A stretch of DNA of 10,577 bases from a virus (Duplodnaviria > Heunggongvirae > Uroviricota > Caudoviricetes). This document shows positions 1 through 4,814 of this stretch, in pieces. The notes under the pieces were generated by a model that saw nothing but the letters and a program-made list of their open reading frames with translations, searched no databases and had not been told where the DNA came from. Where the stretch lies: positions 1 through 10,577 of IMG/VR virus record IMGVR_UViG_2744054675_000008; one strand, given 5' to 3'. Position 1 is the first letter of the stretch; each line of letters opens with the position of its first letter. The translations under genes and the position numbers were made by a program.

Positions 1-195
1 TTAATAGTTCTGCTGATTTTCTTCCATCTCTGCTTCTGCTGCCAGTGATTCAATTTTATCTGCGAATATTGCTGACAGTGTTGCAAATTCAGCATCAGTG
101 ACAGCGGGAATTGGAACAAACCTGATCCCGCTGTGTGCAAGCATGTTTGCAGTTTCAAGGCATTTCCTTAAATCTGCTGGTGATGCCCTGTTCAT
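1..195 (-). CDS. Hypothetical small phage protein (64 aa), last gene of the leftward operon in this window
   Basis: Complete ORF (ATG at 195-193, TAA at 3-1). Its ATG overlaps the TGA of the upstream methyltransferase gene (ATGA overlap), suggesting translational coupling. No family recognised. Confidence 0.45.
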   Translation of the reverse strand: MNRASPADLRKCLETANMLAHSGIRFVPIPAVTDAEFATLSAIFADKIESLAAEAEMEENQQNY

Positions 196-842
196 GCTGC
201 ACGCTCCCGTCCCTGGTTGTCTGTTGGTGACAGCGGAGAATTGCTGAATGCATTTGTTAATCCGCCAATATCCAACGCGTATCCGGGGTGTAGTTGCACT
301 GCCGGGTCTTCACACTGATTACCCCAAACATCGAAGCCATGAGACGTCTGGCGGGCGAACAGTTCAATGCGAGAAACATCGCCTAACAATTGCACAAGTT
401 TTTCACGAACGATATCTGGTTTTCTTGAATGCTCAAGCCGCGGTGCGGTAAATGACTGAACGATCCCTGCATTAATGCGCGTAGGTAGTTTTCCCTTTAC
501 CGCAAACAGGCAATCTTCACTATTGGCGCGAGTCATGTGTCCCATACCCATAACCAGTTTATCTGGTTGTCGACTACCACATTTTATCCACGTGAAGCCA
601 TTCATGGTCATCAGACGGAATCCCCAGGCTTCAACAACTTTTAGTGCTTCGAGTGGTTGTGTTGGCACCCACCACATGGCCAACAGACAGTTTTCAGCGG
701 TCAAATCCCACACAGGAAGGCGGCAGATATCCAGCACACTCATAACTGGATATTTAAAACAGGCACCGCGATTACCATCTGCGGCTTTGTCCCGGTATAC
801 CCAGGGTGGATCTGCATAGATTAGTGTGTATTTCTTAGTCAT
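192..842 (-). CDS. MT-A70 family DNA N6-adenine methyltransferase (orphan, phage Dam-like)
   Basis: N-terminal MTKKYTLIYADPPWVY contains the DPPW catalytic motif near the N-terminus, as in MT-A70-type phage adenine methyltransferases; EHSRKP segment later. ATG at 842-840 overlaps the upstream ORF stop (ATGACTAA). The ORF track begins at an in-frame GTG at 854; ATG at 842 preferred. No restriction endonuclease partner in the window. Confidence 0.8.
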   Translation of the reverse strand: MTKKYTLIYADPPWVYRDKAADGNRGACFKYPVMSVLDICRLPVWDLTAENCLLAMWWVPTQPLEALKVVEAWGFRLMTMNGFTWIKCGSRQPDKLVMGMGHMTRANSEDCLFAVKGKLPTRINAGIVQSFTAPRLEHSRKPDIVREKLVQLLGDVSRIELFARQTSHGFDVWGNQCEDPAVQLHPGYALDIGGLTNAFSNSPLSPTDNQGRERAA

Positions 843-1134
843 AAACCACCCCACAACATCCTATGCCGCTATAGTCGCCACGGCGAAGGCCGTTACCTTT
901 TGTGATACATTGGTCCCTGCGAACCGCGATCCTTGCACGTTCAACATCACCAGAAGCAACATCCATACACTGAAGCCAAAGGTGAGCGGCAATGCGGAAT
1001 TGCCCTTTTTTCTCTCTTTCAATCGCGCGTTTTTCGATCTCTATCGCCGCAGGAGTAACGGCGACAATCTTTGACGGACTGCGCATTGAAACCTTATTCA
1101 TGTGATATTTTTCAAGTCGGCTTAACTTTCTCAC
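835..1134 (-). CDS. Hypothetical phage protein (83-99 aa depending on start)
   Basis: ORF whose stop overlaps the methyltransferase start. Start uncertain: GTG at 1134 preceded by GAGAGGG, or ATG at 1086 preceded by AAGG. No family recognised. Confidence 0.4.
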   Translation of the reverse strand: MRKLSRLEKYHMNKVSMRSPSKIVAVTPAAIEIEKRAIEREKKGQFRIAAHLWLQCMDVASGDVERARIAVRRDQCITKGNGLRRGDYSGIGCCGVVYD

Positions 1135-1243
1135 TTAATCCAACCCTCTCTGAAAATTAATGCCAGCAGATAAAGCCATGCTGAAACAGAGGCCAGGAAT
1201 AAGTACCAGCCTGACCATTTGCTCCAGTGCCTTAGCAGCGCAC

Positions 1244-1492
1244 TCATGCAGCGTTGCTCACAGGACGATATACACGTTGCTGAACAGGAGGTTTTTTACC
1301 CTGGAACTCTGCCGGGCTTGCTGCCTGACGTTCATCAAGCCAACGCTCAACTTCATCACGGTTCCATGCGCAGCGTTTGTCAGTGATATACCAGCGTTTA
1401 GGAAATTCCCCTGCGCGCTCCATACGGTCGATAGTGCTCCATGACAGTGGCACCACCGCCAGGAGTTCCTTCTTACCTAATGCACCTTTCAT
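1244..1492 (-). CDS. AlpA/Xis-family helix-turn-helix DNA-binding protein (phage transcriptional regulator or excisionase-like)
   Basis: 82 aa; segment LLAVVPLSWSTIDRMERAGEFPKRWYITDKRCAWNRDEVERWLDER matches the AlpA/excisionase-type winged-HTH pattern (S-x-S/T-I-x-R, FPKP-like, W-x-x-x-E-V-x-x-W). Shine-Dalgarno AGAGAGG upstream of the ATG. Confidence 0.65.
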   Translation of the reverse strand: MKGALGKKELLAVVPLSWSTIDRMERAGEFPKRWYITDKRCAWNRDEVERWLDERQAASPAEFQGKKPPVQQRVYRPVSNAA

Positions 1493-1514
1493 AAATACCT
1501 CTCTTGGTTGCAGT

Positions 1515-1533
1515 GCGGCGCGCGTGGCGCCGC
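1515..1533. other. GC-rich perfect hairpin (7-bp stem GCGGCGC / GCGCCGC, 5-nt loop) between the annealing-protein gene and the AlpA-like gene; no U-tract on either strand
   Basis: Inverted repeat read directly: GCGGCGC gcgtg GCGCCGC at 1515-1533. Confidence 0.5.
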
Positions 1534-1541
1534 GGTGGTGG

Positions 1542-2423
1542 TTACATAGATGTTTCGTTTAATTCTTCCCGACGAACGCTGTAAACGTCGGTGGCTTTTG
1601 CCAGCAGTTCTTCATCATCTGAAAGTTTTTGTGCAATGTATTTGTAAGCCTTATCCAGTTCGGAGACAGTGCTGTAATTCATCGCTGCGCTGGTAAAGGC
1701 CATCAGCATTTCTTCTGGATCACGGCTATCCGCTTTACGCGTTTGCTCATCAGGCTTTTTCGCTGGTTTAGCGTTGATCAGACTGTTCATTCCCGCAGCA
1801 GTGGTCGTTTGCGGAGTAATGTCTCGCTCAACGCGCGGTGCCGTTTCCTGTAATTCGTCAGGGGTGTAAACACCGAGAAGTACATCAGGAGCGTGCAGGC
1901 GAGCCCATCGTTTCGTGCAAAGATAGGCAAGCTGCTGGCGCGGATCCTGTTCCCACAATGGAGAGTTACGCACTCCGGCTTGCGCCATACTGATGGTAAG
2001 CTCACGGGGTTCTGCTTCTCCTTTAAGAACTGCTGACACAGTTACCGTCAGATTCGGTGATTTATCTGTTTTGCCGTTAACATTCGACCAGTCACCGCTC
2101 CAGCGATAATTCAGGCGTGTCGCTAGCAGGCTGGAAGAGGATACGACCGCGTTTACCAACTGTGCTTCGTAGCCTAACGTTCCGTTTACCACATGCGTTT
2201 TCTGCGCCACGGCGAAAGGATTCATTCCCCACTGTGCCGCCTGCATGGTCACCGCCAGACAATCGGCAGGTTTGCCTTCAAGATGTTTCGGTACAGTCGC
2301 TTTGCTTTGTGACATCAACTCCGCGAAACGCACCAGTTGATTCATGCCCTCCGGGCTGAAGATTGCCGCAGCAGTACCTACAGTTGCGCCTGGTTGTGAT
2401 GTGATTGCGATATCATTGCTCAT
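1542..2423 (-). CDS. Phage single-strand annealing protein, Red-beta (Bet) family recombinase
   Basis: 293 aa. C-terminal region matches lambda Bet as I recall it (…ARL…Y…DE…ERDITP motif) and an N-terminal segment resembles the Bet core. ATGA overlap with the upstream exonuclease gene, AGGA Shine-Dalgarno. Family assignment from memory, not from a search. Confidence 0.7.
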   Translation of the reverse strand: MSNDIAITSQPGATVGTAAAIFSPEGMNQLVRFAELMSQSKATVPKHLEGKPADCLAVTMQAAQWGMNPFAVAQKTHVVNGTLGYEAQLVNAVVSSSSLLATRLNYRWSGDWSNVNGKTDKSPNLTVTVSAVLKGEAEPRELTISMAQAGVRNSPLWEQDPRQQLAYLCTKRWARLHAPDVLLGVYTPDELQETAPRVERDITPQTTTAAGMNSLINAKPAKKPDEQTRKADSRDPEEMLMAFTSAAMNYSTVSELDKAYKYIAQKLSDDEELLAKATDVYSVRREELNETSM

Positions 2424-3241
2424 ACGTACATATCCTGTTTACGTGCCCAGTCAGGGCGTTTAATAATTTCCACTCCGCCCCACTCATCGTTGATGCGGCA
2501 TTCGTGATAGGTATTCAGATCCCGGCGGAACAGAGCGTGCCCGGCATCGACATCCGGCGCATCCAGCTCGAACACGCGTACCGGATACCGACCACAATCA
2601 ATGCTTTCGCTCACGGCAAGAAAGAAAAAACCATGCGGCTGACCAGTAACCTTCATTGCGCCTTCGCGGTACATTGCGTCCTGCACGTGGTAGCGGAATT
2701 CCTCGATGTGGCGTGCAAAACGGTCCATATCTGCAACCTTTTTCACGTCGACGATCACGTTGTGCTCGTTCAGCCATTTGTCTGGACGAATGCGGCACAA
2801 CTCACCAGTCTCTTCATCGTTCCAGTACATTGATGCTTCGCAGTAACCAGGTGCTTCCAGCATCCAGCGTGCAGCCGGGTGAGCCATTGCGCTATCACGC
2901 ATCAGCTCCAGTTTTCGCCACTGCTCGACATCAAGTACCGTAATACCCATATCCGCCACATCACGAAGAAATGCTTCTTCGTCAGCTTTACCTTGTTTTG
3001 TCCGACGATCGAATTTCGGTGAAACAATGAAGCGTTTGTCGAACTCTCCAGGCTCCAGAAGCAGACAGTGCAATGCGGTTCCCATATCCAGTGCAGACTT
3101 TTTCTCTTCGTCTTCTGGTGCTGCCTGAACCCATTTAAGAAGCGCCGGATTCTTGGCAACCATGTCCAGTTGCGACTTACTCACGCCGTCACCGGCGTGG
3201 TAGTCTTCGTTGCTGATGTCGAAATAAATTCCCGGTTTCAT
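2420..3241 (-). CDS. RecB-family PD-(D/E)XK exonuclease (RecE C-terminal-domain-like phage exonuclease)
   Basis: 273 aa. Motifs in order: RPD (Asp), IVDVKKV (D-x-K) and QDAMY (QxxxY) characteristic of RecB-like nucleases. Sits immediately upstream of and overlaps the annealing-protein gene, the classic exo/annealase pair. GAGGGA Shine-Dalgarno. Confidence 0.7.
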   Translation of the reverse strand: MKPGIYFDISNEDYHAGDGVSKSQLDMVAKNPALLKWVQAAPEDEEKKSALDMGTALHCLLLEPGEFDKRFIVSPKFDRRTKQGKADEEAFLRDVADMGITVLDVEQWRKLELMRDSAMAHPAARWMLEAPGYCEASMYWNDEETGELCRIRPDKWLNEHNVIVDVKKVADMDRFARHIEEFRYHVQDAMYREGAMKVTGQPHGFFFLAVSESIDCGRYPVRVFELDAPDVDAGHALFRRDLNTYHECRINDEWGGVEIIKRPDWARKQDMYV

Positions 3242-3537
3242 GCCGCGTCCCTCTGTCCATCAAGCTGATCCGCCAGATCCCAGCGGGCGATAATTGCCAT
3301 TGCCTCTCGCCGATAGGCATCCATCAGTTCTTCGAACTCAGGGCTGTCTTTAGCAGCCTCCAGTACTTCCTGACGAACGCCTTTGCCTGTTACAACGTCG
3401 AAAGTTGAGGACAGTTGATGAAGTCGGATGCTCTCAATCAGTTCAACTTGTCGGTCATATAGCTGTTCTGACAGGCGGTAGTCCTTGTCGAATGCCAGCA
3501 TGATTTTTTGAAGATTTTTCTGCTGATTAACGTTCAT
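3238..3537 (-). CDS. Hypothetical phage protein (99 aa from the ATG at 3537), upstream of the exonuclease gene
   Basis: In-frame ATGs at 3552 and 3537; the one at 3537 is preceded by GGGAGGG at ideal spacing. Stop overlaps the exonuclease start (ATGA). No family recognised; position is where Gam/Kil-type accessory genes sit in lambdoid phages. Confidence 0.5.
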   Translation of the reverse strand: MNVNQQKNLQKIMLAFDKDYRLSEQLYDRQVELIESIRLHQLSSTFDVVTGKGVRQEVLEAAKDSPEFEELMDAYRREAMAIIARWDLADQLDGQRDAA

Positions 3538-3539
3538 TA

Positions 3540-3692
3540 TCAGCCCTCCCATATCTCGTTATCGTTGGCCACATCGCGAGCTTCTTTGCTGACGAAAGCC
3601 CACTTAATGCCTTCCTGTAAGGTGCGGAACTTCCAGCTCATGAATCCGCATGCAGTAACGCAGTACCAACCGTTGATGATTTTCCACTGCAT
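3540..3692 (-). CDS. Small ORF (50 aa, MQWKIINGWYCVTACGFMSWKFRTLQEGIKWAFVSKEARDVANDNEIWEG), first gene downstream of the predicted PL; not in the supplied ORF track
   Basis: ATG at 3692-3690 preceded by GAGGT with 8-nt spacing; stop TGA at 3542-3540 overlaps the start region of the next gene. Translation verified codon by codon. Trp/Cys rich, not Arg rich. Confidence 0.5.
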   Translation of the reverse strand: MQWKIINGWYCVTACGFMSWKFRTLQEGIKWAFVSKEARDVANDNEIWEG

Positions 3693-3710
3693 AACTTGTT
3701 ACCTCGGTCT

Positions 3711-3727
3711 GTTACCGTTTAGGTAAT
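3711..3727. promoter_or_regulatory. Operator site OL-a (GTTACC gttta GGTAAT), overlapping -10/+1 of predicted PL
   Basis: 17-bp inverted repeat of the RTTACC-N5-GGTAAY family, seen 7 times in three intergenic clusters. Confidence 0.6.
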
Positions 3728-3754
3728 AATTATGCGTATTTGGTTTGATGTCAA
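3726..3754 (-). promoter_or_regulatory. Predicted leftward early promoter (PL-like): -35 TTGACA, 17-bp spacer, -10 AATTAT
   Basis: Consensus -35 hexamer read on minus strand (plus 3754-3749) and a -10 with the conserved A and T positions (plus 3731-3726); flanked by two operators. Confidence 0.5.
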
Positions 3755-3772
3755 TAGATATGAGTTAAAAAA

Positions 3773-3789
3773 ATTACCCATTAGGTAAT
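3773..3789. promoter_or_regulatory. Operator site OL-b (ATTACC catta GGTAAT), perfect palindrome upstream of the PL -35
   Basis: Perfect 6-bp inverted arms with 5-bp spacer; centre is 62 bp from the OL-a centre. Confidence 0.6.
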
Positions 3790-3795
3790 AGTATA

Positions 3796-3826
3796 GGCAA
3801 TAAAAAAGCCGCCAGAAGGCGGCTTA
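3796..3826 (-). terminator. Rho-independent terminator of the repressor gene
   Basis: On the minus strand: stem AAGCCGCC / GGCGGCUU with UUCU loop followed by UUUUUUAUU; the repressor stop codon lies in the stem. Confidence 0.7.
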
Positions 3827-4429
3827 CTTACTGAAAAGTATTATTTTATTGTTTGTTTTTTCGTTCTGGTTGATGACAAATTCACTGTAACTTTCGATCT
3901 TTGCTTTCTCGGTTTCAGGTAACAATGCGTAGCGCGAGCGGTCATAGTTGATAGTTGCAGGGTCGTGCGGGTGAATCAGTAGTTCATATCCGTGACGCCC
4001 GAATGCAGATGCAACATTCTCCAGGGTGGAAATGGAAACGCTGACCTCATTGTTTAACAGGCGGCTGATTGTCACCTGGGCGACGCCGGATGCGCGGTGA
4101 AGTTTTCCCTGTGTTGAAAGGTCGCGGCTTTCGCTCATCCAGCGTTCCAGGTTGTGAGCCGCCAGCTGACCAATGTCGCTTGGGCCGACAGGCTGAAAAC
4201 CTTCCTGAGAAAGCGAGCGATCGATATCAAGCCAGTTACGGGGTTTATTGGCGGCAGCTTCAATTTTTCGCGCAACCTGGTCGCCGATAACCTTCTTGCC
4301 AAGAGCCCAGCGGTTTACCAGATTTGCCTGAGTTCCAAGTTTTTCAGCCATCCGCGTCTGAACACCATTGAATTCACGGTCGATCAAGTCGTTGAGATTT
4401 TGCCTGCGGACGTCCTGGATACTTTTCAT
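3824..4429 (-). CDS. Prophage repressor (CI-functional analogue) with two HTH_XRE-like domains and no LexA-like peptidase domain
   Basis: 201 aa. N-terminal segment GVQTRMAEKLGTQANLVNRWALGKKVIGDQVARKIE and C-terminal segment ASGVAQVTISRLLNNEVSVSISTLENVASAFG both fit the XRE-type HTH pattern. No GDSM-type Ser/Lys autocleavage motifs. Divergent from the Cro-like gene, flanked by operator clusters and followed by a terminator. No obvious Shine-Dalgarno. Confidence 0.7.
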   Translation of the reverse strand: MKSIQDVRRQNLNDLIDREFNGVQTRMAEKLGTQANLVNRWALGKKVIGDQVARKIEAAANKPRNWLDIDRSLSQEGFQPVGPSDIGQLAAHNLERWMSESRDLSTQGKLHRASGVAQVTISRLLNNEVSVSISTLENVASAFGRHGYELLIHPHDPATINYDRSRYALLPETEKAKIESYSEFVINQNEKTNNKIILFSK

Positions 4430-4483
4430 TTTCTGGAAAATCGCCTCATATATGAATCAGTAGATGATTCAATTTAAAGCAAT

Positions 4484-4500
4484 ATTACCCAATAGGTAAA
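4484..4500. promoter_or_regulatory. Operator site OR-1 (ATTACC caata GGTAAA)
   Basis: Member of the 17-bp inverted-repeat family in the repressor/Cro intergenic region. Confidence 0.55.
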
Positions 4501-4517
4501 TGCACCCCATAGGTAAC
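4501..4517. promoter_or_regulatory. Operator site OR-2, degenerate (tgcACC ccata GGTAAC), abutting OR-1
   Basis: One perfect half-site (GGTAAC) and a partial one; centre 17 bp from the OR-1 centre. Confidence 0.4.
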
Positions 4518-4522
4518 TATCC

Positions 4523-4558
4523 TTGATTTTTGTTACCTTATGGGTGAATATTTATTAT
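4523..4558 (+). promoter_or_regulatory. Predicted rightward early promoter (PR-like) for the Cro-like gene; exact hexamers ambiguous
   Basis: Candidates: -35 TTGTTA (4530-4535) with -10 TATTAT (4553-4558) at 17-bp spacing, or -35 TTGATT (4523-4528) with -10 GAATAT. Both overlap operator OR-3. Confidence 0.45.
4532..4548. promoter_or_regulatory. Operator site OR-3 (GTTACC ttatg GGTGAA), overlapping PR
   Basis: Perfect left half-site, partial right half-site; mirror image of OR-2. Confidence 0.5.
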
Positions 4559-4583
4559 CTGAAATAAATATCAGGCAATAGCT

Positions 4584-4814
4584 ATGAGCGATAACGGACA
4601 TTTCGATTTCAAAAAGCACTGGCTTGCACTTACTCCGGATGAGCGTGAAGCCTTCGCACAGGAAGCCGGAACGACGAGTCATTATATCCAGACTCACTTA
4701 ACAGGTAAGCGCAAAATGCCAGGTAAAGTATTGATGAATGGGCTTTTTAAAGCCTGTAAAACAAGACAATGGCTGCGCTCAAAAGCAGAACTGGCATACT
4801 TCTTCTACTCATGA
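4584..4814 (+). CDS. Cro-like small HTH regulator (76 aa), divergent from the repressor gene
   Basis: Position (first gene of the rightward operon) and a central HTH-like segment FAQEAGTTSHYIQTHLTGKRKMPGKVL. Family not identified beyond Cro/YdaS-like resemblance. Confidence 0.55.
   Translation: MSDNGHFDFKKHWLALTPDEREAFAQEAGTTSHYIQTHLTGKRKMPGKVLMNGLFKACKTRQWLRSKAELAYFFYS

Follow-up and report, generated by a model that had tools for sequence, protein, structure and literature searches.

The closest described counterparts of the locus analysed here are found in the temperate podoviruses phiV10 and epsilon15 (Uetakevirus). Genes p34-p33-p32 of phiV10, and gp31 and gp29 of epsilon15, share with it their gene order, strand and convergent P4-type integrase, and in both phages the same repressor operators bracket the promoter. 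Epsilon15 differs in that a 35-aa gene lies between the PerC and methyltransferase genes, and in that a serotype-conversion gene replaces the DUF1382 gene in the slot after the methyltransferase. Among adenine methyltransferases, M.EcoGI and M.EcoGII of E. coli O104:H4 are likewise orphan, beta-class (the catalytic motif precedes the SAM motif), prophage-borne enzymes without a nuclease partner; they are non-specific, stay silent in lysogens and presumably guard the phage DNA in lytic growth (PMC5778455). They differ from the enzyme described below in having a DPPY motif, a length of ~349 aa and a central TRD, and in lying outside the MT-A70 family, and their activity was established by experiment whereas that of the present enzyme is derived from its sequence. 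The eukaryotic assemblies METTL3-METTL14 and MTA1-MTA9-p1-p2 belong to the same Pfam family and share the fold, the DPPW motif and the C-terminal SAM-binding motif. However, these are heteromeric complexes with extra domains that act on mRNA or on ApT in DNA, whereas the phage protein is a bare core, 20-24% identical to them, with no conserved partner gene. For the two small proteins, the relevant precedents are PerC of EPEC and Pch of EHEC prophages, of which Pch relieves H-NS silencing by displacing H-NS from silenced promoters such as LEE1 (PMC4764244), and Orf63 of lambda and Stx phages, which is dimeric and pro-lytic (PMC10869804).

Here we analysed a stretch of 10,577 nucleotides of viral DNA (the window). 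Its bases 1-1134 probably form the far end of the early-left operon in a temperate podovirus prophage of E. coli that is of the phiV10/epsilon15 type (Uetakevirus), with gene products that most likely act independently of each other. At the nucleotide level the window and phage phiV10 are 98.4% identical, and the three terminal genes of the window correspond to phiV10 p32-p34. The three genes were already known: they are annotated in the phiV10 and epsilon15 reference genomes, and about one tenth of complete E. coli genomes (559 of 5426) carry matching DNA with the same annotation of all three. In the closest complete genome, the DUF1382 gene is followed by a convergent int and then by guaA. 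By position, and partly by content, the region would be the counterpart of the lambda exo-xis accessory region. No structured RNAs or tRNAs were detected in the window. The genes of the operon are the following:

1..195, minus strand: Orf63/DUF1382 homologue, 64 aa, its TAA stop being window bases 1-3; last cistron of the early-left operon
192..842, minus strand: MT-A70 methyltransferase, 216 aa, ATG at 842, DPPW encoded at 801..812
835..1134, minus strand: PerC/Pch-family small regulator, best read as 99 aa from GTG 1134
1131..1247, minus strand: 38-aa ORF, homologue of the phiV10 p35 / epsilon15 gp32 membrane protein
1244..1492, minus strand: AlpA-family regulator, probable excisionase (Pfam Phage_AlpA 3.1e-5; PHROG 66 2e-16)
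1542..2423, minus strand: RecT (Pfam RecT 1.3e-31)
2420..3241, minus strand: RecE-like PD-(D/E)XK exonuclease (Pfam DUF3799 2e-21)
3238..3552 and 3540..3692, minus strand: two small ORFs, promoter-proximal in the same operon

The initial annotation had described three overlapping open reading frames around a DPPW methyltransferase, and these are all present on the minus strand, including the sizes given for the upstream (83-99 aa) and downstream (64 aa) frames. The PerC stop and the methyltransferase ATG overlap by 8 nt in ATGACTAA, read as GTT TAT GAC TAA in one frame and ATG ACT AAG in the other; the methyltransferase stop and the DUF1382 start share an ATGA (GCA GCA TGA and ATG AAC). The claim that the three genes form a unit stands only in part, since these overlaps are exact but the unit has no boundary: the chain runs on through the 38-aa ORF, whose TGA is overlapped by the PerC GTG at 1134 (GTGA), to the AlpA-like gene, whose stop overlaps the ATG of the 38-aa ORF (ATGA). 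Read directly, all four junctions have the stop/start overlap of coupled cistrons, and the methyltransferase and DUF1382 genes each have their own Shine-Dalgarno-like sequence (GGGAG, 8 nt upstream, for the Orf63 homologue). These cistrons may be coupled in translation. Seven of the eight junctions in the minus-strand operon overlap, and the overlaps are therefore the local norm and carry no special signal; tight, mostly overlapping cistrons would represent the usual packing of this operon. The epsilon15 gene order, gp33-gp32-gp31-(gp30)-gp29 methyltransferase-gp28-int, matches that of the window. Its gp33, the counterpart of the AlpA-like gene, is annotated as an excisionase and transcriptional regulator, and the gene at 1244..1492 is likely to be an excisionase. 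The 38-aa gene, for which a Pfam search gave no family, is also annotated in phiV10, Tyrion, SPC32H and epsilon15.

Transcription of the operon appears to be governed by the following elements, of which the promoter and operators were called from consensus and homology:

3754..3726, minus strand: predicted early-left (PL-like) promoter, TTGACA-17-AATTAT, from a promoter scan
3712..3726 and 3774..3788: two predicted operators, exact TTACC-N5-GGTAA, bracketing the early-left promoter
3824..4429, minus strand: phage repressor (Pfam HTH_3 1.4e-9)
3825..3806: terminator of the repressor gene, from a terminator scan
4485..4547: three further operator copies in the repressor/cro intergenic region, from a repeat and operator search

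The TTACC-N5-GGTAA pattern has 12 matches against 2.75 ± 1.57 expected, a count that none of 200 shuffles reached; the sites also include a pair at 6816/6878. The early-left promoter is a single minus-strand promoter-like site located just past the repressor-gene terminator, and from 3700 to 1 the scan detected neither a terminator-like site nor a further promoter-like site on the minus strand; an internal promoter or terminator setting the three genes apart was rejected on this basis. Plus-strand terminator-like matches at 880-893 and 988-1004 are at chance level (5 found versus 4.5 expected). The layout is the same in epsilon15, which has annotated repressor-binding sites at the corresponding positions. 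Operators bracketing the promoter would keep the operon off in the lysogen and allow it to be switched on upon infection or induction. One long transcript would then be expected to run from recE/recT through the AlpA/Xis-like gene, the 38-aa gene, PerC and the methyltransferase to the Orf63 homologue.

The methyltransferase matches Pfam MT-A70 (PF05063) over profile positions 1-172 of 172 (6.6e-22; 78.7 bits against a cut-off of 23.9) and the PADLOC model MTase_II for type II DNA methyltransferases at 1.6e-78, and is 77% identical to epsilon15 gp29. DPPW occupies residues 11-14 (GAT CCA CCC TGG), and the C-terminal SAM-binding motif, HSRKP...RIELFAR, aligns with QSQKP...LEIFAR of MTA1; both DPPW and HSxKP...ELFAR are kept across 32 homologues. 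The protein consists of a ~176-aa core followed by a variable C-terminal tail, with no separate target-recognition domain. In the PDB, its sequence matched ciliate MTA1 (3e-13) and METTL3 (2e-5). An AF2 model of moderate confidence (pLDDT 71.9, pTM 0.73), in which loops 19-22 and 95-106 are poor, retrieved METTL3 (E 2e-13, TM 0.64-0.68) and MTA1 (E 3e-12) with Foldseek, and superimposes on the METTL3 and MTA1 catalytic domains with TM 0.6-0.68. As judged from these motifs and the model, the enzyme is an MT-A70 beta-class N6-adenine methyltransferase with a predicted METTL3-like Rossmann fold. We found no experiment in the literature on the motif, substrate or activity of this enzyme or its close homologues, and a literature search for an experimentally determined motif of a phage MT-A70 enzyme also returned nothing.

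The methyltransferase is an orphan. Among all window ORFs scanned, the only nuclease is an exonuclease for recombination, the RecE-like partner of RecT; no restriction endonuclease is encoded in the window or beyond the DUF1382 gene, where int and guaA lie, so that the initial annotation was right on this point. Among 33 upstream and 35 downstream neighbours of homologues there was no recognisable match to a restriction-enzyme family, and the nucleases flanking homologues are only of the phage types NinB, RusA, YbcO, HNH_3 and PDDEXK_5. A restriction-modification system, type II included, was therefore rejected, no endonuclease being encoded in the window or around the methyltransferase gene in relatives. 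Identity with the named E. coli enzymes M.EcoGIX, M.EcoGI and M.EcoGII was also rejected, as none of them is of the MT-A70 family; M.EcoGIX is plasmid-borne and single-strand-specific.

The two small proteins, first described as being of unknown function, in fact belong to the PerC/Pch and lambda Orf63/DUF1382 (8DSB) families. The upstream protein matches Pfam PerC (PF06069) over residues 35-80 (6e-7; 30.1 bits against a cut-off of 22.6) and PHROG 868, 'transcriptional activator', over residues 1-99 (5.7e-62); assignment to the ANR (AraC negative regulator) family, NF033650, was rejected (23.6 bits against a cut-off of 32). Its reading frame ends at 835 and could start at 1086 (83 aa), 1101 (88 aa) or 1134 (99 aa, GTG). 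Relatives have an ATG in place of GTG 1134 and conserve KLxRLEKYH, and the identity to epsilon15 gp31, 78%, extends over all 99 residues. From these comparisons, the start was probably mis-called in RefSeq/PGAP records, which give 83 or 88 aa where 99 aa is supported. Like PerC and Pch, the protein is small, helical, prophage-encoded and above the Pfam PerC cut-off, but only its central ~45 residues fit the family model, and its gene belongs to an early lytic operon in contrast to the lysogen-expressed virulence regulators. By analogy, it may be a small regulator of the type known to relieve H-NS silencing.

The 64-aa protein matches Pfam DUF1382 (1.3e-30; 105.7 bits against a cut-off of 27) and, over residues 2-62, lambda Orf63 in PDB entry 8DSB (E 6e-13). 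It keeps V27, I29, E36, K47 and the dimer-forming strand GIRFVPIP, although the two proteins are only ~50% identical. Both are encoded in the same class of genomic position, between the recombination genes and int (PMC10869804), whereas lambda Orf63 sits between orf60a and orf61 without a methyltransferase. Entry 8DSB is labelled 'Xis (Excision72)', yet it is Orf63 of the lambda exo-xis region (PMC10869804), and a role of DUF1382 as the excisionase was rejected. The homologue could likewise act as a dimeric developmental modulator of the type that, in lambda and Stx phages, tips the balance towards lytic growth.

With its DPPW and SAM-binding motifs intact, the MT-A70 enzyme would act probably as a homodimer, as expected for the beta class, and would place methyl groups on adenine N6 of phage (and host) DNA as it replicates in lytic growth; progeny genomes could thereby be shielded from the restriction systems of the next host. 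Methylation of phage DNA in lytic growth is the most likely role, DNA as opposed to RNA is the presumed substrate, and an anti-restriction purpose, or the anti-restriction or epigenetic role suggested at the outset, is a reasonable default. Prophage methyltransferases are silent in lysogens and presumed to protect phage DNA (PMC5778455, PMC4659465). A lysogen methylome would probably reveal no new motif, because the operon is repressed in lysogens. Its absence is therefore expected under repressor control and refutes nothing, which makes the refutation test proposed in the initial annotation a flawed one: comparisons of lysogen methylomes would miss the methyltransferase, and virion DNA or forced expression is needed.

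It is also conceivable, if unlikely, that the methyltransferase is mainly regulatory and marks phage DNA for replication, packaging or the lysis-lysogeny choice, or reprogrammes host transcription in lytic growth. Its gene lies amid AlpA/Xis, PerC and Orf63 genes in the equivalent of the lambda exo-xis region, the products of which tune the lytic-lysogenic outcome (PMC10869804), and the orphan methyltransferases Dam and CcrM are regulators (PMC4659465, PMC7544214). An enzyme made after DNA entry comes too late to protect the infecting genome, a point that speaks for regulation and against anti-restriction. However, no target motif or regulated site is on record, and the gene is missing from many Uetakevirus and lambdoid phages. 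Moreover, its position varies freely among prophages, early-left in some and in the nin region in others, a pattern more in keeping with a self-contained accessory function than with a built-in regulatory circuit.

That the window copy is a decaying or hypomorphic gene without measurable effect in a resident prophage seems very unlikely. Relative to the phiV10/epsilon15 lineage, K81N and G28C belong to the window copy itself; K81N is private to it and affects a subfamily-invariant lysine, which all 82 close loci retain, as do the 31 remaining members of the 32-sequence alignment. Both substitutions could weaken the enzyme, and the region is degraded at other loci, in one of which DUF1382 is truncated (L070) and in another the phosphatase gene is IS-disrupted (L082). 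On the other hand, the reading frame is full length, its DPPW and SAM-binding motifs and the whole operon are intact, and across the wider MT-A70 family position 81 varies, a phmmer alignment to MTA1 pairing it with a non-conserved D beside a two-residue gap.

Little credence can be given to the view that the three genes work together as a module and that the PerC-like and/or the Orf63-like protein would target or regulate a methyltransferase devoid of a TRD in the manner of p1/p2, MTA9 or METTL14. What speaks for it, besides the exact start/stop overlaps, is that the methyltransferase is a bare ~176-aa core whose closest solved relatives work in multi-subunit complexes (PMC7544214); that these relatives need partner subunits (METTL14 for METTL3; MTA9/p1/p2 for MTA1) is also a point against the main reading. 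Rare in-frame PerC-methyltransferase fusions occur in assemblies (P0001, P0002), but these are single-contig variants and possibly assembly errors. The gene orders of relatives argue otherwise. In 80 near-identical loci, the methyltransferase gene is followed by DUF1382 in 53, by a Metallophos phosphatase in 21 and by an 82-aa ORF in 6; DUF1382 is thus swapped for unrelated cassettes in 27 of the 80, with the ATGA junction unchanged in every one. These viral-contig relatives (96-99%) are too close for a test of PerC linkage, which was therefore examined by scanning genomes at the species level. Only 10 of 39 diverse loci have PerC within 3 kb upstream of the methyltransferase, and ~29 lack it. 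In the nine clear Uetakevirus-like loci 148-1212 nt separate its end from the start of the methyltransferase gene, and the tenth (L110) is a weak match of 35% identity. One to three genes separate the pair in epsilon15, Tyrion, SPC32H and seven species-level relatives, and at no locus of the 39 outside the phiV10 lineage do the two abut. DUF1382 lies downstream of the methyltransferase in a single one of the 39 diverse loci and occurs without it in lambda, 434, DE3 and Stx1 phages; like DUF1382, PerC is widespread without a methyltransferase. In other Enterobacterales prophages the immediate neighbours of the methyltransferase come from many unrelated families (NinB, RusA, Q, NinH and others).

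The adjacency of methyltransferase and DUF1382 genes does recur in two lineages, Uetakevirus and the Stx2a phages, and a facultative link between the two genes thus retains some small probability. Between the window and Stx2 phages, however, the methyltransferases are 83% identical and the DUF1382 proteins only ~50%; the two genes therefore did not travel as one block. Conserved co-occurrence or adjacency of PerC, MT-A70 and DUF1382 was not found across relatives, and the suggestion that the small proteins are specificity or regulatory partners fails on synteny, with DUF1382 replaced and PerC separated or absent. As far as gene order can tell, the three genes are interchangeable neighbours and form no dedicated three-protein machine.

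The reading hardest to sustain holds that the enzyme places m6A on RNA, or on single strands specifically, with phage or host transcripts or intermediates of replication as its substrates; it draws on the METTL3 catalytic domain as the best fold match (the nearest solved relatives of the enzyme thus including an RNA methyltransferase, a point also against a DNA substrate), on the capacity of beta-class M.EcoGII and METTL3-14 to act on RNA and ssDNA (PMC7544214, PMC5778455) and on the label 'N6-adenosine-specific RNA methylase IME4' that some sources give to homologues, but that name is automatic, the closest solved sequence relative, MTA1, produces 6mA in DNA, the eukaryotic MT-A70 clade branches from within a prokaryotic radiation to which R-M DNA methyltransferases also belong (PMC4738411), and the PADLOC match is to a DNA methyltransferase model.

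Taken together, the arrangement favours independent products, with methylation of phage DNA in lytic growth as the most likely task of the enzyme. The significance of the finding is small as it stands, the genes being annotated and common. There is a very slim prospect that the bare-core MT-A70 subfamily, instead of working as an ordinary sequence-specific DNA methyltransferase, acts METTL3-like on RNA or single-stranded nucleic acid, or alternatively derives specificity from loops 86-98 and 125-131, two surface loops that co-vary, together with facultative Orf63/PerC partners; if this were true, the Orf63 link would provide a biochemical target for lambda's long-unexplained exo-xis proteins. 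This phage MT-A70 subfamily is very common (>2,000 protein clusters), none of its enzymes seems to have been characterised, and characterising one would fill a gap in the methylome annotation of E. coli and Salmonella.

The minus strand of the window ends in three overlapping genes, with two further overlapping ORFs directly upstream:

1..195, minus strand: 64-aa ORF (DUF1382), whose TAA stop is window bases 1-3
192..842, minus strand: MT-A70 methyltransferase of 216 aa, ATG at 842
801..812, minus strand: DPPW of the methyltransferase (residues 11-14)
835 to 1086, 1101 or 1134 (possible starts), minus strand: PerC-family ORF
1131..1247, minus strand: 38-aa ORF, its TGA overlapped by GTG 1134 of the PerC-family gene (GTGA)
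1244..1492, minus strand: AlpA-family gene, its stop overlapping the ATG of the 38-aa ORF by ATGA

Reading of the sequence gave the PerC/methyltransferase junction as GTT TAT GAC TAA over ATG ACT AAG (8 nt in common) and the methyltransferase/64-aa ORF junction as GCA GCA TGA over ATG AAC (ATGA). The two start/stop overlaps in the initial annotation are exact, and its sequence observation was accurate. The translational coupling that it read from them is compatible with the overlaps but is not proven by them, because each downstream gene has its own Shine-Dalgarno-like sequence: GGGGTGG ahead of the methyltransferase and GGGAG 8 nt ahead of the 64-aa ORF. Nor do the genes form a three-gene unit, since the overlaps go on upstream through the 38-aa ORF to the AlpA-family gene. 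RecT, a RecE-like exonuclease and two small ORFs follow further upstream in the same strand-run, in which seven of eight junctions overlap.

A promoter scan revealed a sole minus-strand promoter-like site in 1-4600 (TTGACA-17-AATTAT, 3754..3726), directly after the terminator of the repressor gene; scanning downstream of it found no minus-strand terminator. Exact TTACC-N5-GGTAA palindromes flank this promoter at 3712 and 3774 (span 3712-3788), and the repressor/cro intergenic region (4485-4547) holds a further three. The palindrome has 12 matches against 2.75 ± 1.57 expected, a number reached in none of 200 shuffles. Phage epsilon15 shares the operator-promoter-operator layout, annotated there as repressor-binding sites. 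Because repressor-operator palindromes bracket its promoter, the early-left operon should be silent in the lysogen and expressed upon infection or induction. A second pair of exact palindromes at 6816/6878 (6816-6892), spaced 62 nt start to start as at 3712/3774, has the replication P gene on one side and the DUF1064 gene (6896) on the other and suggests a third repressor-controlled promoter.

Over bases 1-1500 the window shares 98.4% identity with phage phiV10, whose counterparts of the three genes (PhiV10p34, p33 and p32) are annotated as transcriptional activator, DNA methyltransferase and DUF1382 protein. Of 5426 complete E. coli genomes, 559 carry matching DNA, and for 537 of these at least 80% of the query is matched. 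The three genes close the early operon of a common prophage and are ordinary and already annotated. In epsilon15, the type species of the genus, the order is gp33 (AlpA/excisionase), gp32, gp31 (99-aa activator), gp30, gp29 (methyltransferase), gp28 and int; gp29 and gp31 are 77% and 78% identical to the window methyltransferase and PerC-family protein. In the best-match genome, the DUF1382 gene faces a convergent P4-type integrase gene 3 bases away, which is followed by guaA. The two stop codons lie 3 bases apart with no terminator between them (locus L001, 5997-6001; closest complete genome L002, 9997-10001), so that early-left transcripts reading through would run antisense to int. The window itself ends exactly on the DUF1382 stop codon, as do several IMG/VR contigs. 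At 3238-3552 the window has a single 104-aa ORF where the closest genome has two genes (L002 13238-13740), encoding a 68-aa MarR-like protein and a 99-aa protein, a further mosaic difference within the same operon.

Both small proteins, initially annotated as of unknown function, belong to families. The PerC-family protein scores 30.1 bits against Pfam PerC (cut-off 22.6) and matches PHROG 868 'transcriptional activator' over all 99 residues (5.7e-62). Sequence comparison supports the 99-aa form from GTG 1134, because relatives carry an ATG at this position and conserve the KLxRLEKYH that follows, and conservation with epsilon15 gp31 points the same way; the public starts, giving 83 aa (PGAP) and 88 aa (phiV10 RefSeq), are probably mis-annotated and too short. 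The 64-aa protein matches DUF1382 (1.3e-30) and one solved structure, 8DSB (E 6e-13), labelled 'Xis (Excision72)' but identified in the paper as lambda Orf63, a dimer-forming protein of the exo-xis region that has a pro-lytic phenotype and for which no molecular partner is known (PMC10869804). It retains the Orf63 dimer strand GIRFVPIP and residues E36 and K47.

The proposal that these proteins are coupled partners of the methyltransferase is contradicted by comparison of related loci. Among 39 diverse loci (35 species-representative genomes and 4 phages), PerC lies within 3 kb upstream of the methyltransferase in just 10. In the nine clear Uetakevirus-like loci, 148-1212 nt separate the end of PerC from the start of the methyltransferase, and the intervening genes are DUF1317, winged-helix or DndB-like. 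The match in the tenth locus (L110) is weak, at 35% identity. The DndB-family (DNA-sulfur-modification-associated) gene overlaps the methyltransferase by 4 nt from directly upstream in Salmonella phage SPC32H (L085 937-2004) and a Citrobacter werkmanii prophage (L094 1937-3004). Of this set, the Stx2 phage alone has DUF1382 after the methyltransferase. Elsewhere the adjoining genes include NinB, RusA, Q, NinH, LexA-like and Dam-like ones, with 1-11 nt overlaps at about half of the junctions; such neighbours as NinB, RusA, Q and NinH place the methyltransferase gene in the nin region of many prophages. In many Enterobacterales prophages (L097-L116; Serratia, Rahnella, Erwinia and Pantoea-type), this methyltransferase subfamily has NinB upstream and RusA, NinH or Q downstream, and this nin region belongs to the early-right operon, not the early-left. 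DUF1382 occurs in 372 phage records, among them lambda, 434, DE3 and Stx1 phages, where it lacks a neighbouring methyltransferase. The two genes have not travelled as a block, because identity between the window and Stx2a phages is 83% for the methyltransferase and only ~50% for DUF1382.

In 80 close viral contigs (methyltransferase 96-99% identical), PerC is always kept, which is uninformative at such small distance. Next to the methyltransferase stop, 53 of them carry DUF1382, 21 a calcineurin-like Ser/Thr phosphatase and 6 an 82-aa ORF leading on to an AntA antirepressor; in epsilon15 a serotype-conversion gene fills this slot. The ATGA junction is kept in all 80. Since unrelated cassettes are joined via the same ATGA, the junction is a recombination seam and the slot a swap site. 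Two of the copies there are decayed, namely a truncated DUF1382 (contig L070) and an IS-disrupted phosphatase (contig L082). Rarely, a PerC-like ORF is fused in frame to the methyltransferase (P0001 and P0002, 263 and 297 aa, one contig each); these fusions may reflect either assembly errors or genuine small deletions within the 8-nt overlap.

The methyltransferase matches Pfam MT-A70 over the full domain (6.6e-22) and the PADLOC type II methyltransferase model (1.6e-78); its closest solved sequences are ciliate MTA1 (3e-13) and METTL3 (2e-5). An AlphaFold model from an alignment of 32 homologues (pLDDT 71.9, pTM 0.73) aligns with the METTL3 and MTA1 catalytic domains (TM 0.6-0.68). Because RNA enzymes and obligate heteromers are among these fold relatives, an RNA substrate and a partner requirement each keep a very slight probability. 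The conserved core of ~176 residues contains no separate recognition domain, and the last ~40 residues form a variable tail. The homologues divide into two allelic classes, told apart by co-varying segments at residues 86-98 and 125-131 (window about 548-587 and 450-470): ...KCGSRQPDKLVMGMGH... with ...AGIVQSF..., and ...KTNKHKGNSAI-GMGH... with ...ASICQHV.... The first segment overlaps the model's lowest-confidence loop, and the pair are candidate target-recognition elements of an enzyme without a separate TRD. Residue 81 is N in the window alone (K81N, 600-602), whereas all 82 close loci examined and the remaining 31 members of the 32-sequence alignment have K; C28 (G28C, 759-761) stands where most others have G. 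Both could be sequencing errors, neutral variants or marks of a weakened enzyme. The subfamily comprises 2238 protein clusters at E<=1e-5, every one generically named, and literature searches found no experimental work on it.

The methyltransferase is an orphan, as initially annotated, and the anti-restriction or epigenetic role that the annotation named as common for such enzymes stands as the default reading. The analysis shows the gene identities, the operon structure, the operators, the orphan status and the variable synteny; the enzyme's substrate, motif and purpose and any translational coupling are inferred. Analogous prophage orphan methyltransferases are silent in lysogens and active once expressed (PMC5778455, PMC4659465). 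A methylome comparison of lysogen against cured strain would probably reveal no new motif because the early-left operon is repressed in the lysogen; such an absence would therefore not refute activity. Upon infection or induction, the early-left transcript most likely yields three products acting independently of each other. The PerC-type protein probably modulates transcription, by analogy with Pch, which acts via displacement of H-NS (PMC4764244), and the Orf63 homologue would tilt development toward lysis (PMC10869804). The MT-A70 enzyme, working as a dimer as expected of the beta class (PMC7544214), would, like other prophage orphan methyltransferases, methylate adenines in replicating phage DNA, and methylated progeny may thereby be protected against restriction in later hosts.
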